Origin: an uncultured Methanomassiliicoccales archaeon
GTDB taxonomy: Archaea > Thermoplasmatota > Thermoplasmata > Methanomassiliicoccales > Methanomethylophilaceae
Assembly (NCBI GenBank): GCA_949292635.1
Contig: CASEZY010000001.1
Location: 222,434 to 286,433, forward strand
Length of the DNA stretch: 64,000 nt
Direction of reading: 5' to 3'
Notes under the pieces: model-generated
What the model was told of the DNA's origin: nothing
Seen by the model: only the letters and a program-made list of their open reading frames with translations
Database searches by the model: none
Part shown: in pieces, positions 14,329 through 63,657 of the stretch
How the letters are laid out: every line of letters starts with the position of its first letter
How positions within the stretch are numbered: the first letter of the stretch is position 1
Position numbers and translations under genes: made by a program

Positions 14329-14387
14329 GTCCAAATCCCCCGGCACCGCCGGGGTCTCAAAACCCTTCACTGTTCTTATAAACGGGG

Positions 14388-15062: not shown

Positions 15063-16046
15063 TCAGAGGGTGAACACCTTCGCCCAGTTGGTGAACGGTA
15101 TCCCTATCTTCACGATCAGCATCTCCCCCGCGGTCGCCGCGTGTTCGATGGTGAACTGCTTGGTGCCGTAGCCCTTGTCGCCGGAACCGCTGAGCACCTC
15201 CGTGGTGCCGGTGTCGATGCCGTAGGCGATGACATCCGCAGAGGCCATCAGGTAGTATGCCTCATAGGTATTGTTGTTGAACTGTCCCAGGGAATATATG
15301 CGGCCCGAACCGTAATCAGTGACCGCGTAGGATGAGAACCCTTCTTCGTTCAACAGACCCAGTGACACGGTGTTGTATCCCGCATCGTTCAACATCTGTA
15401 CGTTCACCCCGTAGGAGCAGTTAGTCAGTGTCACACCCATCCTCTCGGACCAGTATGTCGCTGTGACACCTGCGGAAAGCGTCGACTCGGCTATCGTCCC
15501 CTCCGGGAAGAAATAGGTGGCATCGAACTCCTCGATGCCGCTCTCGGAGGTCACGCTCTTGCCGAGTTCTCCCATGCTCCAATGAATCGTACCCCCTGCC
15601 AGGATCCAGTTCTTCAACAGATCGCCTTCGACAACGGCCTTCGGAAGAACTCCTGCGCAGAAGTAGACCGCCTTGCCGGATGCATTGCCGGTGTCCTGCA
15701 GCAGCTCCGTCAATGCGGCGGTGTCGATGCGCTGGCCTTTGGTGTAGCCTCTCAACTCCAGCATGGAATCCAGAGCGTCGTAGAATTGGACCTGTTGACT
15801 ATGATATATCATTCCAGGCATGGAGGTGTCATACCAATAGTACAGACTGTTCGACACGTCCATACCTGCGTATATGCTGTACGAATAGCCGCTGGGAAGG
15901 AATCCGTTCAACGTGACGTTGATACTGTCATCGTCGTTCCAGATGTCCGCAGAAGTGTCTGCGAACATGTCCGCCTGGATCACCGCCCACCCGACCACCA
16001 GCACCGCTGCTATGACGGTCAGGATTGCCACCTCAGGATTCCTCAT
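15063..16046 (-). CDS. Predicted secreted or surface-anchored protein (hypothetical)
   Basis: N-terminal signal/anchor helix, Ser/Thr/Asn-rich body; overlaps the upstream membrane gene by 14 nt. Confidence 0.5.
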   Translation of the reverse strand: MRNPEVAILTVIAAVLVVGWAVIQADMFADTSADIWNDDDSINVTLNGFLPSGYSYSIYAGMDVSNSLYYWYDTSMPGMIYHSQQVQFYDALDSMLELRGYTKGQRIDTAALTELLQDTGNASGKAVYFCAGVLPKAVVEGDLLKNWILAGGTIHWSMGELGKSVTSESGIEEFDATYFFPEGTIAESTLSAGVTATYWSERMGVTLTNCSYGVNVQMLNDAGYNTVSLGLLNEEGFSSYAVTDYGSGRIYSLGQFNNNTYEAYYLMASADVIAYGIDTGTTEVLSGSGDKGYGTKQFTIEHAATAGEMLIVKIGIPFTNWAKVFTL

Positions 16047-44420: not shown

Positions 44421-45476
44421 TCAGTTCTTTCCCAGCAGTGCGGACAGGCGCTCCTTGAGGGAGGATATGCTGCTGACGTCACGCGGATCCTTCGAATCCC
44501 TGAACGCCAATTCGAGAGATATGAAATCACCGAGAAGCGTGGCCCTGAACACCTTCTCGAAGATGTTCCTGCCTGTGATGTTGATCACGTAGGGGTTCAG
44601 ACCATTCTTCTTCAGGGCATTGAAGGTCTGCTTCTGCAGCTTCTCCATCATGCGGCTCATGTCGTCCTCGATCAGGAGGATAGGTTTCATCTTCACCTTG
44701 TTGAAGGAGGACATGCCGTCCACCCCCATGTGATTGGTGTCGGGGATGTGGCCGTCGAAGGCCACCAGCTTGGAGTTCTCGTTGAACTGCGCCCTCCATC
44801 TGCCTGCCACGGAGTAGAGGTATGACGAGGAATAGATCACGGGGACCTTCCTGCCGATGCGGCGGGCTGCCTTCACGGCATCGCTGTCCCTGCCTCCCTT
44901 GAGGGAGGCGACGTACTTCCTCAGGTCGGGGAGCACCTTGCGAATATCATCGGTGATGTCCGGACCGCCGATAGTGCGGAGGATGTTGAACGTATACCCG
45001 ACTGTGTACCCTACGGCGTTGCGGGGCTGTATGCCCTTCTTCACCGCAACCACGTGAATGTCCATCTCGACACAGCGGTCCATCAGGATCCCACCGGAGG
45101 TTATGGCGATGATCTGGCATCCGCGTATCACTGCCTGCTCGAAGACGGACAACGTCTCGCGGGTGTTGCCGGAGTAGCTACTCACCAGCACCAGCGAACG
45201 CTCGCTTGCCCATGCGGGAAGCTCGGGGAACCTGACCACCTTCAGCGGTCTGGATGACACGGGGTACAGGCAATCGGCCACGATGTCTCCGCCCACGGCG
45301 GAGCCTCCCATGCCGCAAACGAGGATCTCATCGAACTCCATCTTCGGGAGGTCCAGTTCCTGATTGATCGCACGGTCCAGGTCGTCCACGATCTGGGCGG
45401 TCTCCCCCCTCATGTTGAAGGGATCCTTGACATTCTCTGGTGTCCGGTCCGCTCCGTTCCCATCCTGCGCGGCCAT
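44421..45476 (-). CDS. Bifunctional phosphoglucose/phosphomannose isomerase (SIS-domain, archaeal PGI/PMI)
   Basis: Two SIS motifs (VCGMGGSAVGGD and SYSGNTRET); about 350 aa. Confidence 0.75.
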   Translation of the reverse strand: MAAQDGNGADRTPENVKDPFNMRGETAQIVDDLDRAINQELDLPKMEFDEILVCGMGGSAVGGDIVADCLYPVSSRPLKVVRFPELPAWASERSLVLVSSYSGNTRETLSVFEQAVIRGCQIIAITSGGILMDRCVEMDIHVVAVKKGIQPRNAVGYTVGYTFNILRTIGGPDITDDIRKVLPDLRKYVASLKGGRDSDAVKAARRIGRKVPVIYSSSYLYSVAGRWRAQFNENSKLVAFDGHIPDTNHMGVDGMSSFNKVKMKPILLIEDDMSRMMEKLQKQTFNALKKNGLNPYVINITGRNIFEKVFRATLLGDFISLELAFRDSKDPRDVSSISSLKERLSALLGKN

Positions 45477-48519: not shown

Positions 48520-48732
48520 TTCAATTACCTCTTTCAGGTCCGCAAAGGGACCCTCATTATTCATCGGCTCCTGAAGAGCGAGTCGCCCTATCCTATCGGC
48601 GTATTTATAGGGATTGGTCTAGAAACAAGCGCATGAAAGAGCCGTTGATTTTGTGTTCAAAAGAACCTAATTACGGTTTTGTTTGATGTATTTGCAGAAA
48701 TTTTGCGAAAATATCAAATAAAAATCAAACAA

Positions 48733-48792
48733 TCTCTCTCACTCTCTCTTAATTCTCTCTTGCTCTAAAGAGCCGGAGAGGGGAGGGAAGAT
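48733..48792 (+). repeat. Polypyrimidine (CT) tract followed by complementary GA-rich RBS-like tract upstream of the AAA_21 ATPase gene
   Basis: tctctctcactctctcttaattctctcttgctct then agagccggagaggggagggaagatcc immediately before ATG 48796; the two halves are partly complementary. Confidence 0.5.
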
Positions 48793-48795
48793 CCG

Positions 48796-50049
48796 ATGAT
48801 AGTTGACTTCACCATCGAGAACTTCGGTCCATTCAGAGACGAGACCGTACTGAGCATGCAGGCCACCGGTATGAAGGGGCTTCCTGGAAACATATCGGAA
48901 TCAAAATTCGCGAAAAACGGACTGCTCACATCAGCAATAGTGTTCGGAGCGAACGCTTCCGGAAAATCATACCTCACAAAGGCATTCTCAGCACTGAGGT
49001 ACATGGTGGCTGACACCCGTCACGACGAAACCCAATTCCCCTGGTATCAGCCATTCAGAATGTCCGAGAGGTGCCTGACGTTCCCAGTGCGCATTCGCAT
49101 AAAATTCGTTGAGAAGAGTGTACTGTATGACTATGCGATATCATATTCGGCAGACCGCATAGTCTACGAGCATCTCTACCACTACCCAAAAAACCGCCGT
49201 GCATGCGTATTCCTACGCACAGGCCCATTGACATTCGAACAGGCGAAAAAAAGCATTGCAGGCCTCACAAACGGATCGTCCGCATATCTTGCTGTGGCAT
49301 CCAAACTGAATGATGCCGTATGCAGCATCGTATCCAAATACATCCTTGAGAGAGTAATCTGTCTGGGTTCCAATCTCCTCCCATTGGTAGCTAGATCCTG
49401 CGTGTATCTATCGGAGAGCCAGGACAGGAAAAATATGGCAATGTCCGGACTGAAATACGCCGATTTCGGAATCACAGACTTCCAGTGGACAGAGGAGAGT
49501 GTCGATTCGTCCGAACTGGAGAGACTCATGCCTCCTGAGATGTACCGCGGCATATCAGATGCCGAGAGGCAGACCGTGAAGAGGATGGATATCCGTCTCA
49601 AGCATTCATTCAGAAGTTCGGATGACAGCGGACTTGAGGAGGTCCTCCCTCTGGAAATCGAGTCGTCAGGGACACAGAATATGTTCGGACTTCTAGGCCC
49701 TCTTACTGATGTGCTGAGCAACGGTGGCGTGCTGATCATCGATGAATTCGGCTCCACATTCCATCCCATGCTGTCAAGGTGGATTGTGTCGCAGTTCTCT
49801 GATCAAACAGGCGACATCAGAGCGCAACTCATAGCCAACTCCCATGACATGGAACTGATGGATACAAAGGAGGTACTCCGCAGGGATCAGATATGGTTCA
49901 CCGATAAGGACAGAGCCACTGGAGCCGCGGAGCTCTATGCCCTATCGGATTTCGACGGCATCAGGAAAAACGCAGATATCGCCAAAGCCTATCTGAATGG
50001 AAGGTATGATGCGATTCCGCACATCCTCTCGGGAAAAATGAAGCCATGA
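48796..50049 (+). CDS. AAA_21-family ATPase, AbiLi/RloA-like (defence ATPase)
   Basis: Walker A GANASGKSYLT, Walker B/D-loop VLIIDEFGSTFHP, C-terminal NSHD; 417 aa; visibly AT-richer than the flanks. Confidence 0.8.
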   Translation: MIVDFTIENFGPFRDETVLSMQATGMKGLPGNISESKFAKNGLLTSAIVFGANASGKSYLTKAFSALRYMVADTRHDETQFPWYQPFRMSERCLTFPVRIRIKFVEKSVLYDYAISYSADRIVYEHLYHYPKNRRACVFLRTGPLTFEQAKKSIAGLTNGSSAYLAVASKLNDAVCSIVSKYILERVICLGSNLLPLVARSCVYLSESQDRKNMAMSGLKYADFGITDFQWTEESVDSSELERLMPPEMYRGISDAERQTVKRMDIRLKHSFRSSDDSGLEEVLPLEIESSGTQNMFGLLGPLTDVLSNGGVLIIDEFGSTFHPMLSRWIVSQFSDQTGDIRAQLIANSHDMELMDTKEVLRRDQIWFTDKDRATGAAELYALSDFDGIRKNADIAKAYLNGRYDAIPHILSGKMKP

Positions 50050-50654
50050 TCGTCGAACCGAGAGACAGAAGACGGAAGAGAAGGAAACCCAAGAACACCG
50101 CGCTTATCGTCGGTGACGGGCGAACCGAACAGCTGTACTTCGAATCCCTCAACAAGAGGTATGGCAAAATCAGCATCATATCCCTCGGAACCAGGAAAAC
50201 CGGTATCGACCAAAGCATCAGGTTTGCAAGAAATGTTGCAAAACACAGACAGTTGAACACCAGTGATGGAGACCTAGTGGCAATCGTGATGGACATCGAC
50301 GGCAGATATTATGAGGAAGACATTGCCAGAATGTACAGGAAGTGCAAGGAGAAAGGATATTCTCTGTTCCTGTCTAACCCTTGCATCGAAATCTGGTTCC
50401 TGCTCCATTACGAAGGAGTTCGTTGCGAATGCACACAGCACGAAGCACTTCATATGCTTGAGGCCGCCAGCAAAATGAAGTATTCGAAATCGAAGTCTTT
50501 CGAATTCGATGATGTGATGCTGAGAGAGGCTATGAAACGTGCAGAAAAAATCCTTCCAACGGAAGAATGCTGCCCGTCTGAATGTCTGAAAAGGAACCCC
50601 AGCACGATGCTTCACGTGCTAGTAGGCAACCTGCTAAACCGCCCCGAGCAATGA
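50046..50654 (+). CDS. RloB-like protein (AbiLii-like, Toprim-related) partner of the AAA_21 ATPase
   Basis: RloB signature ALIVGDGRTEQLYFESL near the N-terminus; start overlaps the ATPase stop (ATGA); 202 aa. Confidence 0.75.
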   Translation: MIVEPRDRRRKRRKPKNTALIVGDGRTEQLYFESLNKRYGKISIISLGTRKTGIDQSIRFARNVAKHRQLNTSDGDLVAIVMDIDGRYYEEDIARMYRKCKEKGYSLFLSNPCIEIWFLLHYEGVRCECTQHEALHMLEAASKMKYSKSKSFEFDDVMLREAMKRAEKILPTEECCPSECLKRNPSTMLHVLVGNLLNRPEQ

Positions 50655-50681
50655 TACAAAACATATTGCAGGGAGAAAATC

Positions 50682-50701
50682 GGCGGGGCTTGCGCCCCGC
50701 C
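50682..50701. terminator. Hairpin between convergent RloB-like gene and membrane-protein gene
   Basis: ggcggggc-ttgc-gccccgcc perfect 8-bp stem. Confidence 0.45.
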
Positions 50702-50709
50702 TAAGGGAA

Positions 50710-51402
50710 TCACATCTGGTCCTTCTTGAACTGGGTGTTCCTGCGGAGCACCGCGTCCTTGAGCTGCCTGCAGATGTAGTCCACGGCGCCGTCGTCGTCG
50801 GTCCCGATGACGCTGAGGAGCTCGTCCATCTTGGCGATGACCTCCTTGTCCATGCCGAGGGTGTCCTCCTTGGAGCGCATGGGCATGCTGAGCACAGCGT
50901 CAACCGCGGACTCCACGGTCTTCTCGTAGGACTTGCCGGAGGCCTTGGCGATGATGGCGTCGGCCCTCCTCTTGAACTCCAGTAGCACCTCGTTGCGGTA
51001 CTGCACGGTGGCGCGGTCCCTGGCGGCTGTGCGCCTGTTCAGGTAGACCTGCCAGATCATCAACGCCATGAGCAGCAGCAACAGCACGGCCTGGAACACC
51101 AGTACGCCCGTAAGGTCGTTCATGGCGACGAAGAACACCACGATTCCCAGTGCTATCTCCACCACCAGGAAGACGCTCAGCGTCATCAGGGACGTGATGG
51201 CGAAGATGTGGGAGTTGGGCGACTTCGGTACGAAGACCGTGAATCCCATCACCAGCAGTATGGACACGTCGATGATCGCCAGGCTCAGGATCTGCTGTGT
51301 GGTCAGATCCCACCCGGCGGAATATGCCAGCAGCAGGTCGATGATCGCCGCGATTATCACCATGATAGCGGCGAATGGCCAGTTCTTGAATGTCGATTGC
51401 AT
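50710..51402 (-). CDS. Hypothetical polytopic membrane protein co-transcribed with the SPFH protein
   Basis: Start MQSTFKNWPFAAIMVII (the ORF-track 5' extension is Arg-rich junk); 4 TM helices then a soluble C-terminal domain; 3-nt gap to the upstream gene. Confidence 0.5.
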   Translation of the reverse strand: MQSTFKNWPFAAIMVIIAAIIDLLLAYSAGWDLTTQQILSLAIIDVSILLVMGFTVFVPKSPNSHIFAITSLMTLSVFLVVEIALGIVVFFVAMNDLTGVLVFQAVLLLLLMALMIWQVYLNRRTAARDRATVQYRNEVLLEFKRRADAIIAKASGKSYEKTVESAVDAVLSMPMRSKEDTLGMDKEVIAKMDELLSVIGTDDDGAVDYICRQLKDAVLRRNTQFKKDQM

Positions 51403-51404
51403 GT

Positions 51405-52556
51405 TCACACCTTCTTTCCGCAGTTGGGGCAGAACTTGGCGCTCGCCTCCAGCTTCTGTCCGCAGTCCGTGCAGAACTTCGCCGCGGCCACGGGGGACCC
51501 GCAGCCGGGGCAGAACTTCGCACCTTCGGGGATCTGGGTCTTGCATGACGGGCATGCGTTGGCGGGAGCGGCGGCACCGTTGTTATTCGCCGAGGATTCC
51601 TGAGCCTGGGCCATGGTGTTGGCGGCCATTCCTCCGAAGGCACCGCCGGCGGCGATACCCATGCCGAGGCCTGCACCGGCGGTGGCAAGGATGTTGCCCT
51701 CGTTCTGTGCCAGGTTGTTCATGACCTCCATGTTCTTGTCCTGCTGCCAGGTTATTCCCAGGGTGTCCAGACGGGCCCTCTCTCCCTGAGCTTCCAATAT
51801 TGTGCTGGCCTTGGCCACACGAGCCTCCTCCAGAGCCTTCCTGGACGCGTCGTCGGCCACCTCGATCGCTTCTATGTAGAAGTTGACCAGGCGCATGCCG
51901 TACTCGTCCATGACCACCTTCAGCTCGGGCTTGACCATCTCGGCCACCTCGTCCTGTCTGGCACAGATACCGATGATCTCGTCGTCTATGGACTGTATCA
52001 CGCGTCCTAGGACGGATTTGACGGTCTGGTTGAACGGGGCGCGGAAGTCCTTCTTCACATCGTCCGGTGAGATGTTATCAACGTTGGATCCCGCGTACTT
52101 CAGGTAGAACTTCTTGGCGTCGTTGACCTGGATGGTGTACGCGCCCCTGGACTTCACCTTGGTGGCGATGTCGTACTTGCGGTCCACCACCTGTATGGGG
52201 GCGTCGGTGCCCCAGTTCATGTCCAGGCTGTGGGCCTTGTTGACGTAGAACACCTTACAGTTGTAGGCGCTGACGCCTCCGGTGAACACGCTCCTCAGCG
52301 GGGTGAGGAAGGGGAAGTTGTCGGTGTCCAGCGTGTACTGTCCTGCTGAGAGTGACTCCAGGATCACGCCGTTCTTGTAGAACAGCAACTCCTGGTTCTC
52401 GTCCACGATGACCTTGGAGCCCTCGTTGAAGTCCTCGTAGGGGACCTTCCAGAACAGGAAGTCGGGCTCGGCCTCGCACTTGATTATGCTGAAGAAGGGC
52501 TTCTTCCCGTTGGGATAGTCGGGATTCTTCCCTCTCAGGTTGTCCAATAGACCCAT
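51405..52556 (-). CDS. SPFH/band-7-like domain protein (COG4260-like putative virion core protein family) with three C-terminal zinc-ribbon repeats
   Basis: Start MGLLDNLRGKN. C-terminus CPSCKTQIPEGAKFCPGCG / KFCTDCGQKLEASAKFCPNCG tandem zinc ribbons. Confidence 0.65.
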   Translation of the reverse strand: MGLLDNLRGKNPDYPNGKKPFFSIIKCEAEPDFLFWKVPYEDFNEGSKVIVDENQELLFYKNGVILESLSAGQYTLDTDNFPFLTPLRSVFTGGVSAYNCKVFYVNKAHSLDMNWGTDAPIQVVDRKYDIATKVKSRGAYTIQVNDAKKFYLKYAGSNVDNISPDDVKKDFRAPFNQTVKSVLGRVIQSIDDEIIGICARQDEVAEMVKPELKVVMDEYGMRLVNFYIEAIEVADDASRKALEEARVAKASTILEAQGERARLDTLGITWQQDKNMEVMNNLAQNEGNILATAGAGLGMGIAAGGAFGGMAANTMAQAQESSANNNGAAAPANACPSCKTQIPEGAKFCPGCGSPVAAAKFCTDCGQKLEASAKFCPNCGKKV

Positions 52557-52910
52557 TCGATCACCTCGATGACGCAACATCGTGCGTTGATGGAAGGAGT
52601 AGCGTGGAGTGGGATAATTAAACTATGTAGAGGAACAGGGGAAGTTGACATGATTCCGAAGACGGTAGGATGGGTGCGGGGTTCGCCGTTGTGCGTAGCG
52701 GATCGGGATCGAATGGGTCCTGAGAACGGTGCACGAACAGGGATGTGCCTTAGATGCCGTCCGTGCACAAGTGTAGGTCTGGCTCATCAGCAATGGTGTC
52801 CCGACGACCGGAAACGGTGCGAAAAGTGTGTAATATAATGTAAGAAAATCATACATTAGATTACACATTTTTTACAAACATTATTATCCTCGGTTCACAT
52901 ACGCAGGATC

Positions 52911-54080
52911 ATGGCGGAGATCCTGCGGGATGAATACCTTCGGAGGCTGGAGTCCTTCCGCGGCCGGCCGGACCTGGTCAAGATACTCACAGGGGTCAGG
53001 AGGTCCGGCAAATCCACCATCCTCTCGCAGTTCCGCAGGAGGTTGGAGGCATCCGGAGAGGAGGTGGTCTCCGTGGACATGGAGGCGATGTCATTCGTGC
53101 TGACCACCGGCCGCGACCTCTACGATTACCTCAAGGAGAGGATGCCCTCCCCGGACTGCGCCGTACTGCTGGATGAGGTGCAGTACGTCGACGGATGGGA
53201 GAAGGTTGTCAACGCGCTGCGTGCGGGAGGAGCGGACGTATACGTCACCGGCTCCAATGCCAAGGTATTGTCATCGGAGTTCTCCACCATGCTTGCGGGA
53301 AGGTATGCGGAGATACACGTTCTGCCGTTCTCGTTCAGGGAGTTCCTGGAAAGGTACCCTCCTCACGGCGATGTTCGCACCTACGCCCGCTTCGAACAGT
53401 ACCTGAGATACGGCGGGCTGCCCATAATCGATCTTGACGATGACCCGGGGAAGAACAGGGTGATCATGAGCGGCGTCTACGATTCCGTCGTCGGAAGGGA
53501 CATAGCCTCCAGGGCGGGGGTCGAACTGCGCACCGTGGAACGTATGACCAGGTTCATGTACTCCAACGTGGGGAACATCACCACACTGTCTTCCATCACC
53601 TCCGGGTCCGGCATATCGGACAGGCGCACCGCGGACAGGTACCTGTCGGCGATCACGGACTCCTACGCATTCTATCGTGCCGATTCCTACGACCTGGTTG
53701 GGAAGCGCCCCATGAGGGTGAAGGCGAAGTACTATGCGGCTGACACCGGGCTGCGGAATGCGGCGCTGGCACACTCGGATGACGATGCATCCGGACTGCT
53801 GGAGAATGTGGTGTTCCTGGAGCTGAAGAGAAGGGGGTGCTCGGTGGCCGTGGGCTCGTACCGTGATTACGAGGTGGATTTCACCGTCAGGAAGGATGCG
53901 GGCGTGGGGCTGATCCAGGTGTGCAAAACGTTGGTCGAAGACAGCACGCTGGACAGGGCGCTCAGGCCGCTGAGGCTGGCGGAAGGGACGAATAAGATCG
54001 TTCTGACCATGGACAGGGATCTGCCTGATGATACGGATGAGGTGTCCTTCGTCAACCTTACGGATTGGCTGATGTCGTAG
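52911..54080 (+). CDS. AAA+ ATPase of the COG1373 type (ATPase plus DUF4143 C-terminal domain)
   Basis: Walker A TGVRRSGKST, Walker B VLLDEVQ, C-terminal DUF4143-like region; AT-rich promoter region upstream. Confidence 0.75.
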   Translation: MAEILRDEYLRRLESFRGRPDLVKILTGVRRSGKSTILSQFRRRLEASGEEVVSVDMEAMSFVLTTGRDLYDYLKERMPSPDCAVLLDEVQYVDGWEKVVNALRAGGADVYVTGSNAKVLSSEFSTMLAGRYAEIHVLPFSFREFLERYPPHGDVRTYARFEQYLRYGGLPIIDLDDDPGKNRVIMSGVYDSVVGRDIASRAGVELRTVERMTRFMYSNVGNITTLSSITSGSGISDRRTADRYLSAITDSYAFYRADSYDLVGKRPMRVKAKYYAADTGLRNAALAHSDDDASGLLENVVFLELKRRGCSVAVGSYRDYEVDFTVRKDAGVGLIQVCKTLVEDSTLDRALRPLRLAEGTNKIVLTMDRDLPDDTDEVSFVNLTDWLMS

Positions 54081-54122
54081 CACCGAATGTTTCAATAGGA
54101 GCCTCCCCCCCTCCTATTACGC

Positions 54123-54473
54123 ATGATGGAGGAGGTGTACCGCGATAACCGCTTGTCATTTGCGATGCTGGCCGTCATGTGGGCGATATTTATCGTCTCG
54201 GTCATCGTGCTCCCGGACAGGATCCCCGTCCATTGGGGCCTCGACCTCTCGGCACCCGATCGCTGGGGCTCGAAGCTTGAGCTGATCATTATGCCATTCA
54301 TGACCACGATCCTGTCCCTCGCATGCATGGGATTCGCGAGAGTCGTCAAAGGGGAGACCTATGGCGACGGGAGGTCCAGCGAAGCGCTGATGAACAAGGT
54401 CACCGCGGGGATCACCGCCGCTATGCTGCTACTGCAGATCGGGATTATGGCCCTCACCGCCATGAGCCTGTGA
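54123..54473 (+). CDS. DUF1648/SdpI-like small membrane protein
   Basis: IPVHWGLDLSAPDRWGSK motif between TM helices. Confidence 0.55.
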   Translation: MMEEVYRDNRLSFAMLAVMWAIFIVSVIVLPDRIPVHWGLDLSAPDRWGSKLELIIMPFMTTILSLACMGFARVVKGETYGDGRSSEALMNKVTAGITAAMLLLQIGIMALTAMSL

Positions 54474-54483
54474 CTCACGAACG

Positions 54484-55494
54484 TCAGTTCGACAGCCTTC
54501 TCTTGAACTCGGTGATCGCAGGCACAGGGATGGGGTCGATGCCCTTCATCTCCGCCAGGCAGAGGGATACGTAATCGCCGAGGATGATGCCGTTCATTAT
54601 GCGCTCCACCATATTGTCGCCGGGGAGGTCCACGATGAGGAATCCGGAGCCGTTCTCCTCCAGGAGCACGGAGCACACGTCCATGTACTCCGATACCGGC
54701 TGTGCGTCCCCCGCGCGGAGGAGTATCGGTATCACACCGGGAGGGGATGAATTGCACCAGGCCTCCAGGCTGTTGTGGCAGAACTCCGGAAATACCCCGG
54801 CTGCGGCCACGGTCTTGGCGTTCTCGTTGATCTGCGCCTTCCAGCGGTCGGCCACCGAACGGATGGCCTCGGAGGAGTAGATGAACGGAATCTTGTCTCC
54901 GATGCGGGCGGCGATGTCCTTCGCGATGGGGTCCGAACCGTCGGAGATCCTGCTGGCATATTCTATGCCCTTCTCCACGGCGGTGTGGAATATCCCGTGG
55001 AAAGACAGGTCTGAATCGTTGGCCTTGAGGACGGCGACGATATTCATCACCACGAATCCTATGTCGCTGCGGGGCATGAAACCGCTGCTGTTGATGAATC
55101 TGGGAACGTCGTCCCTCTCGGCGATGTCCTTCAGCTTCCCGCCGGAGGTGATCACATATACCCCGCATCCTCTCGCGCGGGCGTCGCTGTAGAGGGAGAG
55201 CATCTCCCGGGTGTTGCCGGAGTAGCTTACCACCATCACCAGTGTGTCCTCGTCAGCCCATTGGGGGAGGACGCTGACCCTGAGCATGGTAATAGGTATC
55301 TTGGACATGCTGTCGCAGATGTCCGCGACCAGGGCGCCGGAGATGCCGGAGCCGCCCATCCCCGCGATGATGACGTGATTGTAATGCCTTGTCAGCGAGG
55401 CGGTGACGAATCCGTTGGCGTCGTTGAATCCCCTGATACGGGTGAGGTGCTCGAGAGGGCGCTCTAGACCAGGTCTGTCGCTGGGAGGGGACAT
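54484..55494 (-). CDS. Second bifunctional PGI/PMI-type sugar-phosphate isomerase (SIS), paralog of 44421..45476
   Basis: Same SIS motifs (IAGMGGSGISG, SYSGNTREM) and domain order as the first copy, with diverged sequence. Confidence 0.75.
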   Translation of the reverse strand: MSPPSDRPGLERPLEHLTRIRGFNDANGFVTASLTRHYNHVIIAGMGGSGISGALVADICDSMSKIPITMLRVSVLPQWADEDTLVMVVSYSGNTREMLSLYSDARARGCGVYVITSGGKLKDIAERDDVPRFINSSGFMPRSDIGFVVMNIVAVLKANDSDLSFHGIFHTAVEKGIEYASRISDGSDPIAKDIAARIGDKIPFIYSSEAIRSVADRWKAQINENAKTVAAAGVFPEFCHNSLEAWCNSSPPGVIPILLRAGDAQPVSEYMDVCSVLLEENGSGFLIVDLPGDNMVERIMNGIILGDYVSLCLAEMKGIDPIPVPAITEFKRRLSN

Positions 55495-55781
55495 TATGGT
55501 ATGCCAGAGGTCTGGGAATTTATAATGACTACGACATCCGGCATGTAGGTTGACAAAGTCTCCTCTCCAATCACATGAAGAATTTGATGTATTTTATGAT
55601 ACATTGATACATAATTGTTCTAGAACAGTCTTAGTTCACTGCGAATACCAAAGGCGTTTGCCCGAATCGCCATATGTTGAATATCGAATCACACAGGCAC
55701 ACCGAGTGACTAAAAACAAATAAGATATATATCGGTGGCATACAAACCGTGGCATTACCGTGACCGCGGTCATGGAATCAA

Positions 55782-56630
55782 GTGATTAACGTGACGTCGC
55801 CATCCGAGGATGTAAACTCCGAACCGTCTGCAAAGAGGCACACTGTTCCTACTTTACAGACAATTCGGGAAATATACCAGTACCGCAACATCCTGTGGGC
55901 ACTGGTACGCAGGAACATCGTCGGAAAATACAAGAGCTCGTTCCTGGGATTCGCCTGGCACTTCATCACCCCGCTGTGTCTGATCGTCCTGTATTATGTA
56001 GTGTTCACAGGAATCAGAGCAAACCCGATAGAATCCTACTGGATATACCTTGGCTGTGGAATCTTTCCTTTCAGTTTCATGAATTCTAATCTGATATCTG
56101 GATCTGGGTGCATCTTGAATAATGGAGGGTACATCAGTAAGATGTACTTCCCACGTGAGATTGTCCCGCTGGCACAGGTGACGAGTTCGTTCATCATCAT
56201 GCTGTTCGGATATGTAGTGATCATGATTCTGACAATAGCATCAGGATTCACTCTCAACCCGATTGCCTTGCTTACGATTCCAGTGATGTTTGTCCTGAAC
56301 TACATCTTCGTACTTGGTATGGTGTTGCTTATGTCCTCGATAACCGTCTACGTCAAGGATATCCAGCATCTTCTGACATCAATGTCCATGGTGTTCTTCT
56401 TCACCACACCCATGTTCTATCTCGCCAGCGAGACCACCGGAATTCTTAGCAAATTAATATGGGTGAATCCGTTCACCTACTTCGTAGAAGCATACCACAG
56501 CATCGTTTACTTCGGCACGATGCCAAGTATTGAGATCACAGTAGCCTGCACAATACTAGCGGCTGTGTTCCTGGTGGTCGGTGCCATCGTGTTCAAACGT
56601 CTGAAGAGAGGTTTCGTGGAGAGGTTGTGA
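55782..56630 (+). CDS. ABC-2 type polysaccharide export permease (Wzm/KpsM/TagG-like)
   Basis: Six TM helices and a YRNILWALVRRNIVGKYKSSFLGFAWHFITPL N-terminal signature; apparent GTG start; AT-rich. Confidence 0.8.
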   Translation: MINVTSPSEDVNSEPSAKRHTVPTLQTIREIYQYRNILWALVRRNIVGKYKSSFLGFAWHFITPLCLIVLYYVVFTGIRANPIESYWIYLGCGIFPFSFMNSNLISGSGCILNNGGYISKMYFPREIVPLAQVTSSFIIMLFGYVVIMILTIASGFTLNPIALLTIPVMFVLNYIFVLGMVLLMSSITVYVKDIQHLLTSMSMVFFFTTPMFYLASETTGILSKLIWVNPFTYFVEAYHSIVYFGTMPSIEITVACTILAAVFLVVGAIVFKRLKRGFVERL

Positions 56631-58645
56631 TGAAGCCGGACAGCGCGATCGAACTGCATGACGTCAGCAAATCCTTCAGGATACAGATCAGGAACTCAGA
56701 TTCGGAGAAGCTGTTCTTGCCGAAGGCACATTCCGTCAACAAGGTGCTGGATGACGTGAGTCTGACTGTGAAGAAGGGTACCGTGATGGGGATCCTTGGA
56801 CGCAACGGCAGCGGGAAGAGCACCATCCTGAAGATCATCTCCAGGATCATGGAGCCGGACTCCGGTACTGTGGAGATTGGCGGGAAGCTCGCCAGCATAT
56901 TGGAACTGGGGATGGGGTTCCACCCGGATATGTCCGGCAGGGAGAACATCTACATCAAAGGCGAAATGTACGGGTTCTCCCGGAAGCAGATCGAGGAGAG
57001 GATTGACCAGATCATCGAATACTCTGGGATAGACAGGTACATCGACAATCCTGTGAAGACGTACTCCTCAGGAATGGTGGGCAGACTTGCGTTCGCCATT
57101 ATGGTGAATGTGGATGCCGATGTGTTGCTGGTTGACGAGATCCTCAGCGTGGGAGATGCCGCGTTCTCCGCCAAGGCCGCCGAACATTTCAAGAAGATGG
57201 CCAAGAGCGGGAAGACCGTGCTGTTCGTATCTCACAACATAAACTTCCTAGAACAGATCTGCTCGCGTGCCATTTGGATTGAGAACGGGAAGATCGTCGA
57301 GGACGGCCCCGCCAAGAAGGTGTGCTCGATCTACCGCAACCGTGTTTCCGAATCCTTCGACATAATATCTGATCTGGCACATTCCGGAGTGGCCGATGCC
57401 CAATATAAACTTGCCATGATGTACCACAACGGCACGGATGTGCTTCCGGACGAGGGTCTTAGCGCTTTGTGGATGAAAAGGGCTGCAGAGCAGGGGAACA
57501 CACTGGCACAAGTGCGGTATGCAGACATGCTGATGCAAACTGGCTCATTTTCTGATGCTGAAGATGCCATCAACTTCTACAAATCTGCGGCTAATGCCGG
57601 GAATGAAGAGGCCCGGATGAAAATTTCATCATTGTCAAGGCACGAAGGTCTGAATCAAGACCTAGAGGCCGTGAAAGACATCTTCAGACAGTTGGCAGAG
57701 AGGGAAGATCCACTGGACATGTACCGCTATGCAGACCTTCTGCTGAAGACCGCTTGGAGTGATGAAGATCGTGTCAAGGCGTTTGAATGGTTCGTGAAGG
57801 CATCGGACGCTGGAAATGCGGATGCTATGCATTCAGCTGCTATAATGCTGCGTGACGGGAAGGGCGTGGCCAAGGATATCGAAAAATGTGTCTACTATCT
57901 TGAAATGGCTGCGAAACTGGGTCTTCAGAGATCGCAAGTATTGCTTGGTGATCTTTACTACGAAGGTAAAATCCTAGAAAAAGATGATACCAAGGCCATT
58001 CATTGGTATGAAACGGCTGCGCTTACAGGCAACCCTCGCGCACAATACATGACCGCCATCATGTATAGGGACGGACTTGGTACGGACCAGAATGTAACCA
58101 AAGCTGAAGAATGGTTCACGACTTATGTCCATTCATCAGCTACACAGCATATGATCTGGGCCGGAGACGCACTCAGATACGTAGATTTGGAGACTAAGTA
58201 TAGCCCTACTGACCTTTATAAAATGGCCTCAAAATACCATAACCTCTATGGAGACCTCATCCTGGGCAATACCTACCACGACGGAATATACGAAGTTCGT
58301 AACGATGCGACGTCACAAATGTATTATGAAAAATCTGGGAGTCTATGGGGTACGTGGAGGACATCACTGGCAAGGGTACTGATGATCACAGAGGGCCTTA
58401 ATAATATTGCTAGGATTATTGAACTTTACGAGCAGTCGGGTGCTTGTGGAGACGGAGAGGCACTATATCGCCTATCTTTAATCTACAACAATGGTTTGGG
58501 TGTTCCCAGGGACGAATTAAAGGCCAAGTCATTGGCATTAAAAGCTGCAAGATATGGAAACATTTCAGCGTGCAGAGCTATTGTTAAAAATCTTAAGAAC
58601 ATCGACATGCCTGACATTCTAAAATCGTCTAACAAAGATGAATGA
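56627..58645 (+). CDS. ABC exporter ATP-binding protein (Wzt/KpsT/TagH-like) fused to a C-terminal domain of about 11 Sel1 repeats
   Basis: GRNGSGKST, LSGGM-like signature, LLVDEIL Walker B in the first about 240 aa; then repeated Sel1 units (AQYKLAMMYHNG, GNTLAQVRYADML, GNADAMHSAAIMLRDGKGVAKD, GNPRAQYMTAIMYRDGLGTDQN ...). Confidence 0.85.
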   Translation: MMKPDSAIELHDVSKSFRIQIRNSDSEKLFLPKAHSVNKVLDDVSLTVKKGTVMGILGRNGSGKSTILKIISRIMEPDSGTVEIGGKLASILELGMGFHPDMSGRENIYIKGEMYGFSRKQIEERIDQIIEYSGIDRYIDNPVKTYSSGMVGRLAFAIMVNVDADVLLVDEILSVGDAAFSAKAAEHFKKMAKSGKTVLFVSHNINFLEQICSRAIWIENGKIVEDGPAKKVCSIYRNRVSESFDIISDLAHSGVADAQYKLAMMYHNGTDVLPDEGLSALWMKRAAEQGNTLAQVRYADMLMQTGSFSDAEDAINFYKSAANAGNEEARMKISSLSRHEGLNQDLEAVKDIFRQLAEREDPLDMYRYADLLLKTAWSDEDRVKAFEWFVKASDAGNADAMHSAAIMLRDGKGVAKDIEKCVYYLEMAAKLGLQRSQVLLGDLYYEGKILEKDDTKAIHWYETAALTGNPRAQYMTAIMYRDGLGTDQNVTKAEEWFTTYVHSSATQHMIWAGDALRYVDLETKYSPTDLYKMASKYHNLYGDLILGNTYHDGIYEVRNDATSQMYYEKSGSLWGTWRTSLARVLMITEGLNNIARIIELYEQSGACGDGEALYRLSLIYNNGLGVPRDELKAKSLALKAARYGNISACRAIVKNLKNIDMPDILKSSNKDE

Positions 58646-58648
58646 AAA

Positions 58649-59458
58649 ATGCCGGACCAGGGGGAAAAGAGTATGGATAAGATGATATTGATTGCCGGAC
58701 CGTGTGTCATTGAATCCCAGCAATGTCTAGAAACGGTCGCCCCTCACATCGCAGACATCTGCGATGATCTAAACATCGACTATTTCTTTAAATCATCATT
58801 CGACAAAGCAAATCGCACATCAGTAAGTTCTTTTCGCGGACCCGGTATGGAAAAGGGCATCGAAATGCTTCAAAAAATCAAAGATGAATTCGGTGTGAAA
58901 ATAACCACAGATATACACGAGCCGAACCAGGCGGCCCCTGTAGCAAAGGTTGCAGATATGATTCAAATCCCAGCATTCCTCTGCAGGCAAACCGACCTTC
59001 TAATTGCTGCTGGCCAAACTAATCGCATCATCAATGTGAAAAAAGGCCAATTCATGGCACCGTGGGATATGAAAAACGTGATTGGTAAACTCGAATCCAC
59101 TGGAAACAAAAAAATTATGCTCTGTGAGCGTGGCACATCATTCGGGTATAATCGCCTTGTAGTAGATATGGCTGGGATATATGAGATGAAAAAACTAGGA
59201 TATCCCATAGTTTTCGATGCCACCCACTCTGTTCAGCAGCCTGGCGGAGGAAACGGGTTCACCACAGGTAACAGAGAATACATACCCACCCTCACCAGAG
59301 CTGCCATCGCAGCGGGAGCAGAACACTTATTCATGGAAGTTCACCCTGATCCTTCCAAAGCATTGTCTGATGGACCCAATTCTCTTGAACTCTCCGAGGT
59401 CCGCAACCTGTTAGAAAAAGTCGTAGAAATCAGAAATGTTATTGGTGACTCAGCATGA
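58649..59458 (+). CDS. kdsA: 3-deoxy-8-phosphooctulonate (Kdo-8-P) synthase
   Basis: LIAGPCVIES N-terminus, KSSFDKANRTS, and the C-terminal-region motif EVHPDP; about 265 aa DAHP/KDO8P synthase family. Confidence 0.85.
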   Translation: MPDQGEKSMDKMILIAGPCVIESQQCLETVAPHIADICDDLNIDYFFKSSFDKANRTSVSSFRGPGMEKGIEMLQKIKDEFGVKITTDIHEPNQAAPVAKVADMIQIPAFLCRQTDLLIAAGQTNRIINVKKGQFMAPWDMKNVIGKLESTGNKKIMLCERGTSFGYNRLVVDMAGIYEMKKLGYPIVFDATHSVQQPGGGNGFTTGNREYIPTLTRAAIAAGAEHLFMEVHPDPSKALSDGPNSLELSEVRNLLEKVVEIRNVIGDSA

Positions 59459-60426
59459 ACGACAACTATCTGGACTCCGCTCAATATGTTTTTGATAAGG
59501 AGATAGAGGGCTTACTTTCGCTCAAAAACAACCTCGGGGAGTCATTCAACAGGTTCGTAGACGAAATTGATTCTTGCAAAGGCCACATCATATTCATGGG
59601 TGTAGGAAAAAGCGGCCATATCTGCCAGAAAATAGTTGCTACAATGCAAAGCCTAGGCATAAAAACATTCTTCCTGCATCCGACGGAAAGTTTACACGGG
59701 GACCTCGGATCAATTTCCAAAGAGGACATTGTTATCGGCGTGAGTAATAGCGGCGAAACCTCTGAGCTCCTTGGAACAATACCTTCCATCAGGATAATAG
59801 GTGCCAGACTTTTTTGCATAGTTGGGAGGGAAAACTGCACACTCAGTAGAAGTTCTGAGATAACTCTGCTGATGCCCAACATGAAGGAAGTGTTTCTAGA
59901 CAACATGGTCCCAACTACATCCACTACTGCAACACTGGTATTGGGTGATGCTTTAGCAGTATGCATAGCTGAAAAACGCGGGTTTACTAAAAGTGAATTT
60001 GGAATCTATCATCCCAACGGGGCATTGGGGAAAAGACTTACGATTAAAGTCTCAGACATCATGTCTAAGGACATCCAAAACACAACGGTTCCATGCGGTT
60101 CAACCATAAGAGAAGCTGTTGTGACCATGTGTGGATCGTCCATGGGCGGAATATGCGTCGTCAAAGACGGTCAACTTCAAGGTGTATTCACAGACGGGGA
60201 TCTGCGCAGACATCTCAATAAGTACGGAGATGAGGCCCTCGAATATGTTATTGACGATGTGATGACCAAAAAATGTACGACCTTGGATTATGACACGCTG
60301 GCATACGATGCGATAGAACAGGTTGTTACCAAAAGTGCCGTATCGTTCTATCCCGTTCTAAAAGATGGGGAATATGCCGGCGCCATTAGAACGCTGGACT
60401 TTGTCCATTCAGGACTGATGAAATGA
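59455..60426 (+). CDS. kdsD: Arabinose-5-phosphate isomerase (SIS plus tandem CBS)
   Basis: SIS motif FMGVGKSGHI...GVSNSGET plus C-terminal CBS pair; 4-nt overlap with kdsA. Confidence 0.85.
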   Translation: MNDNYLDSAQYVFDKEIEGLLSLKNNLGESFNRFVDEIDSCKGHIIFMGVGKSGHICQKIVATMQSLGIKTFFLHPTESLHGDLGSISKEDIVIGVSNSGETSELLGTIPSIRIIGARLFCIVGRENCTLSRSSEITLLMPNMKEVFLDNMVPTTSTTATLVLGDALAVCIAEKRGFTKSEFGIYHPNGALGKRLTIKVSDIMSKDIQNTTVPCGSTIREAVVTMCGSSMGGICVVKDGQLQGVFTDGDLRRHLNKYGDEALEYVIDDVMTKKCTTLDYDTLAYDAIEQVVTKSAVSFYPVLKDGEYAGAIRTLDFVHSGLMK

Positions 60427-60896
60427 TCAAAAAACTGATTATGGATGTAGACGGCACAATGACTGATGGCAGAATCAACATAGCCCCATCAGGAGAGTTG
60501 TTCAAATCGTTCGATGTCAAGGACGGTTATGGAATAAAGATGCTCATTAACGCTGGAGTAGAACCAATAATAATCACGGGTAGACGCTCAGATATCGTAT
60601 CTCTGCGTGCGAAAGAACTGGAGATCTCAAGTGTATATCAAGGGATATCGGATAAAGCCGAATGCCTACAAAACATAATGGAAAAAGAAGCCTTATCTCC
60701 GGATACTGTGGCATACATAGGGGATGATATAAACGATTTGGAAGCTATGAAACTGGTAAGACACACATTTGCACCGGCGGACGCTTCAGAGGATGTGCTG
60801 AACTATGTCAATCAACGCCTAAACAGCACCGGTGGACACGGGGCGATAAGAGAGTGTGCAGAAGTGATTCTAAAAAAGAATCAGGAGACGGTATGA
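60423..60896 (+). CDS. kdsC: Kdo-8-phosphate phosphatase (HAD family)
   Basis: HAD motif I MDVDGTMTDG and GDDINDL; about 157 aa, typical KdsC size. Confidence 0.8.
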   Translation: MIKKLIMDVDGTMTDGRINIAPSGELFKSFDVKDGYGIKMLINAGVEPIIITGRRSDIVSLRAKELEISSVYQGISDKAECLQNIMEKEALSPDTVAYIGDDINDLEAMKLVRHTFAPADASEDVLNYVNQRLNSTGGHGAIRECAEVILKKNQETV

Positions 60897-61672
60897 TGAA
60901 GATAATTGGTGTGATTCCTTCAAGATACGCATCGTCCAGATTTCCTGGCAAACCGCTGTCAGACATTTGTGGAAAACCTATGGTTTGGTGGGTCTACAAC
61001 CAGGCAAAATGTGTGAAAGAGCTGGACGAAGTGATTGTTGCTACAGAGGACGAGCGTATCACGGACGTTTGTGAAAAGTATGGGATTCCATCAATTATGA
61101 CGTCTGATAAACACAAAAATGGCACAGAGCGCCTTGCCGAAGTAGCGGCCAAAATAGAGGCGGATCTGTACGTCACGATACAAGGCGATGAACCTCTCAC
61201 ACAACCTAGCGACATCTCCAAATTGATTCGTTTCGCTTTATCAACAGATGCGCCCTGTGCAACTATGAAAACCGCATACAGGAATCCTGTGGATGTCATC
61301 AACTCAACAACGCCAAAAGTTGTCTCTGATTTGGATGACAATATTTTATTATTTACGAGATCGCCAGTGCCATATCCTAAAGCAGATCTGGATTACATCA
61401 TCTGGAAACCTATTGGAATATACATTTTCAAAAGAGATATTTTGCTGAAGTACCCTCAATTAAGGATGGGGCCGCTGGAAAGAGCTGAAGAAATTGAACT
61501 TCTTCGCTTCATTGAAAATGGATACAAGATAAAGGTGATTGAAACCGAGTCAAGTACAATTGCAGTAGATACTGAGAAAGATCTCAAAAAAGTAATTAAT
61601 ATGGCCAAAAACCTCTGTGATGATGACCCAGAATCCTATTTCATACATAACTTTAACAGAGGTGTCTGCTAA
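60893..61672 (+). CDS. kdsB: 3-deoxy-manno-octulosonate cytidylyltransferase (CMP-Kdo synthetase)
   Basis: Start MMKIIGVIPSRYASSRFPGKPL, QGDEPL motif; overlaps the kdsC stop. Confidence 0.85.
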   Translation: MMKIIGVIPSRYASSRFPGKPLSDICGKPMVWWVYNQAKCVKELDEVIVATEDERITDVCEKYGIPSIMTSDKHKNGTERLAEVAAKIEADLYVTIQGDEPLTQPSDISKLIRFALSTDAPCATMKTAYRNPVDVINSTTPKVVSDLDDNILLFTRSPVPYPKADLDYIIWKPIGIYIFKRDILLKYPQLRMGPLERAEEIELLRFIENGYKIKVIETESSTIAVDTEKDLKKVINMAKNLCDDDPESYFIHNFNRGVC

Positions 61673-61977
61673 GATAATTGAGGACACTATTTGATAATTG
61701 CCGGACCCCGCTACACGGGACTCCACAATTATCCCCACTTTTTTCTCGAGAACACTGATCCACACAGTCGGAACCTCCGAGAACTAGCCGTAGTAGCCCA
61801 AATTGCCTCATTTGTAGGGTTGAAATTGGACATGGCGACCTTCACACTCATCCTTTTTACCTGAAACTTCGGATTGTGTAGGTTGCAAAGCCTGATTTCC
61901 GTTTTTGATTTATATATTGTATTTAAAGAGTTTAAAAAGCACAATCCTTTAATATGTAACCGTGCATATAGGTTACA

Positions 61978-63657
61978 ATGGGAAGCATATACTATGTCGA
62001 GCGGAACGGGCAGAAGTATGCCTACGAGAGCGTATCCAGACGTGTGCCGGGGAAGAAGAATCCGGTCACCGAAAAGACGTATCTCGGCAAGGTGGATCCA
62101 GAGACCGGCAAGATAATTCCCAAGGAATCCAAGAAGGTCCCGACAGAGGAACATGTCCGCAAGTATGGATGTGTGACGGTCCTCGACAGGATCCAGAACG
62201 ATCTGGGCATATTGGACGACCTCCGCGAATGCTTCCCGGATGTCGCGGAGAACATCATGGCCACGGCAATGGCCGTGGCCATCGACCCCACACCGTTCGA
62301 CGATGTCCATTTCACCGTGGATGAGAACGGATTGAAGGACAGGCTGCGGCTCCGCGGCAGCCTGTCCCCTCCCGTGCTGTCCGACCTGACCAAGGACCTC
62401 GGCCAGAGGTTCTCGGCAATGGACACCTTCTTCACACGTCGTGCCGAGAGGACGATGAAGGGTGGCACCTACGCGATCGACATAACATCCAATTCCACCT
62501 ATTCGGATATGGGCGGATATGCGGAATGGGGCTACAACCGCGACGGCGAGAACCTTCCCCAGACCGGGATCGTCCTCGTAACCGACGGTTCGGGCATACC
62601 GATCGCGTTCCAGATGCTGCCTGGATCGATCGCGGACTCGGCATCGTTGCAGAGTACTGTGGAATGGATGGGATCCATAGGCGTCGCAGGCAGACTGGTG
62701 GCGGACCGCGGGTTCGAGAACGCGGGGAACATGGCCGCGCTGCTGGACCGCGGGATACCATTCACCATCCCGTCCAACGCACGTGAGATGCCGATAAAGA
62801 AGCTCATGACGAAGGCGAAGAGGATCATGAAGGACTCGGACTCCATCCGCAGGCACGAAGGGAGGACGTACAGGGTGGCCGAGTTCGAGGTCGGCATCGC
62901 CGACCTCGAGAGCGGCCACCGCTACGTCACGAGATTGGACGCCAACGAGAAGGGTGCAGGATCCGAGAACGAGCTGTTCGAAACATCCCGCAAGATCAAG
63001 GCGTTCGTCGTCCATGATTCCCGCAAGGCGGCCGATGACATGGATTCCCTGATGTCGGCCATCGAAAGGGCCGAACTCGAACTGGAGGGCACGGTCAGGA
63101 AGGATCCGGCCAAGGAATTCAACAAACTGCCGGCGTTCGTCCGTTCCCATCTGGATTGGACGGTGGATGAGGATGGTGCGATGCACATCGAGAGGCTCCA
63201 GAACTCGTTCTCGTTCGATTCGAACAGGGCAGGGATGTTCATCATGTTCGCCTCGATGGACACGGACTGGGAGACGATGATGTCGTCATACGACACAAGG
63301 GACTGGGTCGAGAAGGCCTTCGACGTCTACAAGACGGACACGGACGGGCCCCGGTCTAGGACCGGGGACCCCGACCGTGCCCGTGCGAGGTTCTTCATCA
63401 GGATGCTGGCACTGATCATGCGCATCACGATTCAGAACAGACTGAGGGATCACGAGAGGGAGATACTGGCGTCGAAGAGGGAGAGGGACGACGTCTGCGG
63501 ACTGTCTGTCAACTCCGTGATGAGGACCCTCGGGACGCTGATGGTGATCGTGAGTCCGGGCTATGTGAGGCTCACGCCACCCTCCAAGACGGTGATGGAG
63601 ATCTTCTCCCTGTTCGGGCTCGAAGAGCCCGTGGCGGGGAGGATCGCCTTACCATGA
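61978..63657 (+). mobile_element. IS1634-family transposase gene (DDE)
   Basis: N-terminal YYVERNGQKYAYESVSRR motif and VADRGFENAGN DDE region typical of IS1634/ISH-like transposases; 559 aa; native-like GC. Terminal inverted repeats not confidently identified. Confidence 0.75.

Follow-up and report, generated by a model that had tools for sequence, protein, structure and literature searches.

An AbiL-Family Gene Pair, Probably Antiviral, in a Variable Slot beside a Ribosomal-Protein Cluster of a Gut Methanomethylophilaceae Archaeon

Introduction

Two adjacent genes of the same strand, abiLi (48796–50049, +) and abiLii or rloB (50046–50654, +), are considered here. They lie in a 64,000-nucleotide stretch of DNA (the window) from an uncultured Methanomassiliicoccales archaeon of the family Methanomethylophilaceae (GenBank assembly GCA_949292635.1, contig CASEZY010000001.1, positions 222,434 to 286,433 of the forward strand). 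The pair is probably a functional two-gene antiviral module of the AbiL family, of the abortive-infection type, in a gut archaeon. Comparison with related strains indicates that it was imported from a sister species by homologous recombination in the flanking sequences.

Family Assignment of the Gene Pair

The first gene encodes an ABC-type (Rad50/SMC/OLD-like) ATPase of the AAA_21 family, 417 amino acids (aa) long. The second encodes a 202-aa protein of the RloB family, a putative Toprim-like nuclease effector. The abiLi stop codon and the rloB start codon share the letters ATGA, a 4-bp overlap at 50046–50049, and the arrangement is operon-like. Both overlapping open reading frames (ORFs) had been described at these positions, with these lengths, in a first-pass annotation made from the sequence alone. 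The motifs read there are also present: the Walker A GANASGKS (residues 51–58) and Walker B LIIDEFG (residues 313–319) of the ATPase, and the RloB signature LIVGDGRTEQLYFESL (residues 20–35 of the 202-aa protein).

The proposal that these genes form an AbiL-type AAA_21 plus RloB pair is borne out by both Pfam and PADLOC searches. AbiLi reaches 61 bits with Pfam AAA_21 (PF13304; gathering cut-off 27), and the second protein reaches 92.5 bits with RloB (PF13707; gathering cut-off 31.5). The PADLOC model AbiLi (PDLC02335) covers residues 1–412 of the first protein (expectation value E 3e-80, 267.7 bits); its next PADLOC families are matched at 1e-19 or weaker (PDC-M12A, then AriA, PDC-M07A, HEC-01A and PtuA). 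AbiLii (PDLC02337, E 4.8e-22) is the sole PADLOC family matching the second protein, and no NCBIfam model matches either of the two. Under the PADLOC/DefenseFinder definition, an AbiL system comprises AbiLi and AbiLii, and at the sequence level everything that this definition asks for is present. Membership of the AbiL family is secure on these sequence comparisons. The hidden Markov models (HMMs) assign both proteins and, as described below, occupancy of the locus is variable and its base composition is non-native, the reverse of what the first-pass annotation had named as contrary evidence.

The closest named counterpart is AbiL of Lactococcus lactis, including ORF55/ORF56 of the Lactococcus prophage proPhi7, whose annotation is abortive phage resistance protein. 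The two are homologous over their full length to AbiLi and RloB (25% identity in each case, across 100% and ~95% of the query; E 2e-26 and 5e-13), and the proPhi7 pair scores on the same HMMs much as the window pair does (AbiLi 4.4e-76 versus 3e-80, AbiLii 4.7e-18 versus 4.8e-22). The gene order, ATPase followed by a small RloB-type protein at tight spacing, is shared, and so are a conserved E and DxD and the motif SN(P/R)xxE(I/V)W(F/L)LLH. The lactococcal systems differ in their low identity (~25%), in their Firmicute host and in their location on plasmids or prophages, whereas the window pair occupies a chromosomal recombination slot. Bacterial plasmid homologues at ~30% identity are annotated as ATP-binding protein, RloB family protein or RloA.

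Predicted Structures and Conserved Residues

The AlphaFold model of AbiLi (mean predicted local distance difference test score, pLDDT, 91) has an ABC-type ATPase head. Its best Foldseek matches in the PDB are Rad50 (E 3e-11), PtuA of Septu and retrons (~1e-9) and SMC heads, and the Thermus OLD nuclease 6p74 is matched at E 4.8e-8; a sequence search of solved structures with AbiLi gave marginal ABC-ATPase matches only. AbiLi lacks the long coiled-coil of Rad50 and SMC. In an alignment of 64 sequences, G51, N53, G56 and K57 of Walker A, E289, S290 and G292 of a signature-like motif, and D316 of Walker B are invariant. S58 and T293 are each kept in at least 61 of the 64, E317 of Walker B in 58 and H350 of the H-loop in 57. 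The window protein keeps all the Walker A, signature, Walker B and H-loop residues.

For RloB, the residue E28 and the motif D83-x-D85 are invariant in 68 homologues. They could be the catalytic residues of a Toprim domain, an assignment taken from the literature (PMC10440598, PMC13064643). HHpred has been reported to relate RloB to OLD_TOPRIM (PMC10440598). In the present comparisons, the RloB model weakly matches the C-terminal regions of OLD. Searches of solved structures with the single sequence and with a profile returned nothing relevant, alignment of the RloB profile to the C-terminal 220 aa of P2 Old by hhalign gave no match, and a Pfam scan of the 68 homologues at E <= 10 returned RloB only and no Toprim family.

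Predicted in this way, the pair resembles OLD (P2 Old, class 1) and Gabija GajA (class 2), which likewise combine an ABC ATPase with a Toprim-type metal-dependent nuclease. In those proteins the domains are fused in one polypeptide, whereas the window has two genes; no PADLOC Old or GajA match was obtained at E <= 0.1, and the UvrD-like partner of Gabija has no counterpart, as no helicase gene is present in the neighbourhood. Septu PtuA and retron-associated PtuA share the ABC ATPase fold seen by Foldseek and give weak PADLOC matches, but the partner in Septu is the HNH nuclease PtuB and not RloB.

Variable Occupancy and Import of the Cassette

For the strain comparison, contigs encoding an identical Rpl7Ae were used, and loci were labelled L001–L109. 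The closest 80 genome loci identify the host as a member of the Methanomethylophilaceae from animal or human gut-type metagenomes. The site is filled in L001/L004 and L002, which are 100% identical to the window, and in L008 (98.4%). It is empty in L003, L005, L006, L007, L009 and L010, where a 162-bp spacer separates the gene for a 230-aa membrane protein (50710–51402, −, convergent to the cassette) from rpl7ae. The pair is therefore missing from most conspecific strains, among them L003, which is ~98–99% identical to the window away from the site.

The first-pass annotation had raised the question whether the insertion is strain-specific. It does vary among conspecific strains, but it is not a one-off event, since the sister species fills the same slot with its own alleles. 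This species is at ~85% average nucleotide identity (infB 84.6% at the nucleotide level, ~88% identity across the region); its AbiLi and RloB genes (L011–L013, L104, L109) are 91.9% and 88.3% identical in nucleotides to those of the window, and its slot also holds a 70%-identical allele.

Horizontal acquisition, which the first-pass annotation had proposed, is upheld by presence and absence among near-identical strains and by mapped breakpoints with sister-species sequence between them. Informative sites are of the own-species type up to 48581, of the sister type from 48582 to 50992, and of the own type again from 51001. Windowed identity follows the same course: at 50700–50849 it is 98.7% to the sister locus L011 versus 84% to the conspecific L003, and at 51150–51299 it is 74% to the sister versus 99% to conspecific strains. 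The imported tract (48582–50995, the end being approximate) is ~2.4 kb long and comprises the cassette, ~40 bp upstream of rpl7ae and, from the 230-aa gene, the 3'-terminal ~290 bp. The two crossovers are placed 17 bp ahead of the rpl7ae start codon and ~290 bp into the 230-aa gene from its 3' end. Because the sister-type tract is sharply bounded by own-species sequence, the cassette was imported from the sister species by homologous recombination in the flanks. The exact donor allele is judged to be outside the sample, since the cassette is ~90–92% identical to the sister alleles and the adjoining flank 98–99%.

The composition of the pair is foreign to the locus. The G+C content is 0.50 in abiLi and 0.48 in rloB, with 0.59 at third codon positions (GC3) for each, while 11 neighbouring genes have 0.58–0.62 and GC3 of 0.80–0.95. 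The visible AT-richness of the pair relative to its flanking genes, read earlier by eye, thus holds in the codon-level comparison.

Insertion by a transposon or an integrase was considered and rejected. The cassette is not flanked by a target-site duplication, direct repeats or terminal inverted repeats, the locus gene tables contain neither an integrase nor a transposase gene, and the only transfer RNA (tRNA) gene in the window lies 16 kb away. The sole repeat spanning both ends, D10, is 12 nt long, falls within coding genes and is a chance match. A viral or plasmid origin was likewise rejected: a scan of IMG/VR with the ATPase alignment found nothing, phage and plasmid collections yielded only bacterial homologues of at most 32% identity, and the nearest named relatives are archaeal. 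The window AbiL belongs to an archaeal clade and is not a recent bacterial import, because the closest named AbiLi relatives (37–45% identity) come from Methanomethylophilaceae, Methanoplasma and unclassified archaeal metagenome-assembled genomes.

Allelic States and Selection

Among the alleles of the slot, ATPase identities to the window are 100%, 95% and 64%, and several states occur. In L008, a 1-bp deletion (equivalent to window position 50446; L008:2244–2851) splits RloB into ORFs of 143 aa and 59 aa; apart from this deletion the L008 cassette, which comes from another sample, is 99% identical to that of the window. The deletion is either a real pseudogenisation or an assembly error. In the sister species, L014 (9698–11293), L015 and L016 carry a 430-aa AbiLi-like ATPase that is 64% identical (PADLOC AbiLi 1e-75) and is not accompanied by RloB; a 77-aa ORF with no family match precedes the ATPase of the L014 type. 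L103 (6113–6579) retains a 467-bp remnant that holds only a degenerate copy of this 77-aa ORF. Outside the slot, the AbiLi-type ATPases of L097 and L099 are again followed by RloB, and L101:1895–3133 is an orphan AbiLi-like ATPase between DUF4143 ATPase genes. Genes for similar ATPases, DUF234 or DUF4143, surround the two homologue loci of L099/L100 and L101. The ATPases without RloB could reflect decay or the use of a different partner.

Both genes have been under purifying selection, because the ratio of nonsynonymous to synonymous divergence (dN/dS) between the window and the sister locus L011 is 0.066 for AbiLi and 0.183 for RloB at dS of ~0.35–0.41, values similar to those of the core neighbour genes. 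On the shorter time scale, comparison of the window allele with L008 over 48976–50441, with L011 as outgroup, gives seven nonsynonymous and two synonymous derived changes, together with the loss of one TC unit in the leader. The amino acid changes are A61T, S96F, A167V, S252G and E358K in AbiLi and G50R and D89Y in RloB, and none of the seven falls on an invariant column. This 7:2 excess stands out against the long-term dN/dS of 0.07–0.18; it could reflect positive selection or relaxation, and the sample is too small to tell these apart. A broader view of the slot would be that it holds a long-lived, cross-species AbiL polymorphism, exchanged through the flanks and maintained by virus-driven balancing or positive selection, in which the form lacking RloB (ATPase plus 77-aa ORF) is a functional variant with a different partner. 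This view is speculative and is considered rather improbable.

Possible Function and Alternative Explanations

The best available mechanistic model for an antiviral AbiL module is PARIS (class 4 of OLD), composed of the ABC ATPase AriA and the TOPRIM protein AriB, in which a sensor ATPase releases a nuclease. Released AriB cleaves host tRNA-Lys (PMC11464382), and AbiL has been grouped with PARIS as systems that pair an ABC ATPase with a TOPRIM protein (PMC11464382; PMC13064643). By analogy, chiefly with PARIS but also with OLD and Gabija, AbiLi would be an oligomeric ABC ATPase serving as sensor and scaffold and keeping the RloB/AbiLii nuclease inactive. A viral cue would be sensed by AbiLi in an ATP-dependent manner, and RloB would be released or activated. 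The activated Toprim-like nuclease would then cut nucleic acid, the infected cell would be arrested and virus propagation blocked.

Like PARIS, the window pair consists of an AAA_15/21-type ATPase and a separately encoded small nuclease. Unlike PARIS, it is matched by AriA models only at AbiLi residues 270–356 (1.4e-18) or 1–66 (5e-05), and the second protein has no AriB/DUF4435 match; the pair thus falls outside PARIS, though it could work in a similar way. The PARIS-like scheme has about an even chance of applying to AbiL, and a function of the defence or toxin–antitoxin type is considerably more likely than this particular scheme.

Several points weigh against the antiviral reading. The ATPase can persist alone, as RloB-less forms show at this slot in L014 and at another site in L101. 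To our knowledge, this host has no cultured virus, and no trigger is known. No archaeal AbiL, whether described or tested, was found in the literature searched. The mechanism of lactococcal AbiL is itself unsettled (PMC13064643), and models of AbiLii and AriB superimpose poorly according to the same review, so that PARIS may be a loose analogue (PMC13064643).

Among the alternatives, a selfish type II toxin–antitoxin (TA) module is the most serious. RloB would be the toxin and the AAA ATPase the antitoxin, and the pair would be kept since its loss is costly. The NetFlax study places pairs of AAA (D29) and RloB/TOPRIM_OLD (D44) in the type II TA network and validated AAA-neutralised TOPRIM_OLD toxins (PMC10440598), and the compact bicistronic AAA plus RloB layout with its 4-bp overlap fits such a module. 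Strong addiction, on the other hand, is hard to reconcile with a slot that is easily lost, as the empty sites, the L008 frameshift, the ATPase-only L014 and the L103 remnant indicate. The loss of the presumed toxin gene in L014 is compatible with TA and defence alike, and the two functions do not exclude each other, as PARIS acts as both (PMC13064643). A selfish module is considered unlikely, yet it has the best chance among the alternatives.

Another alternative is that the imported cassette is already decaying and no longer functions. Sibling alleles do decay, to a frameshifted gene in L008, an orphan ATPase in L014 and a remnant in L103, which would fit this view, as would the seven nonsynonymous against two synonymous derived changes. 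In the window, by contrast, both ORFs are intact, all catalytic and invariant residues are present and untouched by the seven changes, the long-term dN/dS is low, and two independent samples (L001/L004 and L002) each yielded this allele in identical form. Decay of this allele is quite improbable.

An accessory of restriction–modification (R-M), working as an RloAB-type pair with a type I system, is less probable still and is contradicted for this locus. It was in operons of type I R-M systems that the RloB family was originally noticed (PMC10440598), and AbiL is often associated with R-M systems (Makarova et al., PMC3632139). The RloA/RloB genes of Campylobacter type I R-M (hsd) loci, from which RloB has its name, likewise combine the RloB Pfam family with an ATPase partner, and some bacterial homologues of the window ATPase are annotated as RloA. 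In contrast to those loci, no methyltransferase, HsdR or HsdS Pfam domain lies within ~10 kb of the cassette in the window strain or at the related loci, and the unit that moves, ~2.1 kb in size, is self-contained.

A housekeeping pair for DNA repair or chromosome maintenance (a Rad50/RecF-like ATPase with a Toprim protein) placed by chance beside translation genes, to which the Rad50 and SMC heads among the best structural matches might point, is scarcely credible: it is already contradicted by absence from most conspecific strains, and the foreign composition, the specific matches to AbiLi/AbiLii HMMs and not to repair families, the lack of an NCBIfam match and the lack of a long coiled-coil also speak against it.

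Leader Region and Convergent Hairpin

The divergent intergenic region between rpl7ae (−) and abiLi (+) spans 48565–48795. It contains a TATA-like box of rpl7ae (48602–48609), an A/T-rich, promoter-like element (48690–48727), a CT tract (48733–48766) and a purine-rich, Shine-Dalgarno-like tract (48770–48791) before the abiLi start. The element at 48690–48727, a candidate promoter, is conserved between alleles; it is kept in a four-allele alignment, even before the 64%-identical ATPase of L014, and other archaeal abiLi genes have similar motifs in their upstream regions.

What these divergent abiLi genes share is a TTTGCA(G/A)A or TGCAAAT-type motif, sometimes palindromic, by an A/T-rich box upstream of abiLi in the window (48690–48727) and in L014, L097, L099, L101 and L051. 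L097 and L101 have an almost identical upstream element of ~30 nt, even though each of their ATPases is only 48–50% identical to that of the window. The shared motif may be a common promoter or operator.

The CT tract in an AT-rich upstream region, noted in the first-pass annotation, is present. Its length varies between strains through a (TC)n polymorphism at 48732, and the window is one TC unit shorter than both L008 and L011; the tract is a possible slippage site between the promoter and the abiLi start codon. A regulatory RNA in the CT/GA leader was also considered and is unsupported: the stem-loop has no advantage over shuffled sequence (z = -1.6, with an equally good fold in 14 of 200 shuffles), and Rfam gave no match for the leader.

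At the convergent end, a terminator scan finds a G+C hairpin with a T-run at 50682–50701 (−). The hairpin predicted there exists, but it does not mark the end of the cassette: its T-run on the minus strand fits the convergent 230-aa gene, and the same hairpin occurs in L103, a related contig without AbiL genes, so that it is assigned to the flank. The possibility that it is the cassette's own terminator was discarded on these two grounds. Native empty-site strains carry a different hairpin. The structure is the terminator of the 230-aa membrane-protein gene and lies within the imported flank.

Neighbourhood and Second Variable Slot

The cluster rpl7ae-rps28e-rpl24e-ndk-infB (aIF5B) directly adjoins the AbiL pair, as the gene tables confirm for the position that had been given to the pair. 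A second variable slot is situated 2.3 kb from the cassette, between a Band_7/zinc-ribbon gene and DUF1648. Its occupant in the window is an AAA_14/DUF4143 ATPase (52911–54080, +; PADLOC candidate PDC-S01, 1e-111), in L012 a DUF234 ATPase (14329–15741; PDC-S27-like, 2e-33), and in L109 (1–2145) a 167-aa protein together with a 670-aa AAA_21 ATPase. L005, L006, L011, L014 and L103 have nothing in this slot. The two exchangeable slots bracket the conserved pair of 230-aa and Band_7 genes. Because the second slot carries candidate defence genes at such a short distance, the neighbourhood is a small two-slot defence hotspot and not purely housekeeping. The earlier description of a housekeeping setting holds for the adjoining ribosomal cluster, and the contrast it drew with a defence island is softened by the second slot.

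The AbiL slot is lineage-specific, because, among 80 species representatives of GTDB, the 230-aa/Band_7 neighbours are restricted to the species of the window and its sister. In more distant Methanomethylophilaceae the stretch upstream of rpl7ae is taken up by other genes, often those of glycan synthesis. A hotspot recurring throughout the family was rejected, as a remote AbiL pair less than 10 kb from rpl7ae turned up in only one of the 80 representatives (L051). This pair (L051:600–2347), 3.7 kb upstream of rpl7ae, has 31% and 26% identity to the window proteins (AbiLi 5e-82, AbiLii 3e-18), and its proximity to rpl7ae may be a coincidence.

Other parts of the window also vary. The interval 52150–55134, with the second slot and the second bact-PGI_C gene, is 94–98% identical to the sister species (L104), while 44.4–47.4 kb and 51.2–52.1 kb are only 63–88% identical to it. 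The PGI paralogues at 44421–45476 and 54484–55494 show 71.5% and 97.9% identity to the sister species, respectively. These comparisons suggest a second tract of exchange between the species at 52.15–55.13 kb. A low-GC block (0.43–0.50) at ~55500–62000 contains genes for an ABC-2 exporter, an ABC ATPase with Sel1 repeats, DAHP_synth_1, SIS+CBS, Hydrolase_3 and CTP_transf_3 and has the look of a Kdo-type nonulosonic/octulosonic sugar pathway. L012, L014 and L103 have different glycan genes in its place, and the block is probably a variable surface-glycan island. Low-GC dips near tRNA-Lys, at 32.5–36 kb, are small and intergenic.

Significance of the Locus

AbiL was among the earlier abortive-infection systems to be named. 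The locus is not a new kind of system, and current understanding of defence systems is unchanged by it; it is a clean example of how defences move. Its added value lies in the resolved introgression, the series of allelic states and the twin-slot hotspot beside a ribosomal-protein operon. Natural controls come with it, namely empty sites in an isogenic background, an allele with a frameshifted nuclease and one with the ATPase only. The locus is useful for population-level studies of virus-host dynamics in gut methanogens. For a lineage whose viruses and defences are little known, the locus offers a compact, apparently functional archaeal representative of AbiL, and a case at base-pair level of an archaeal defence cassette that crossed a species boundary through homologous recombination in core-gene flanks, with no mobile-element machinery.

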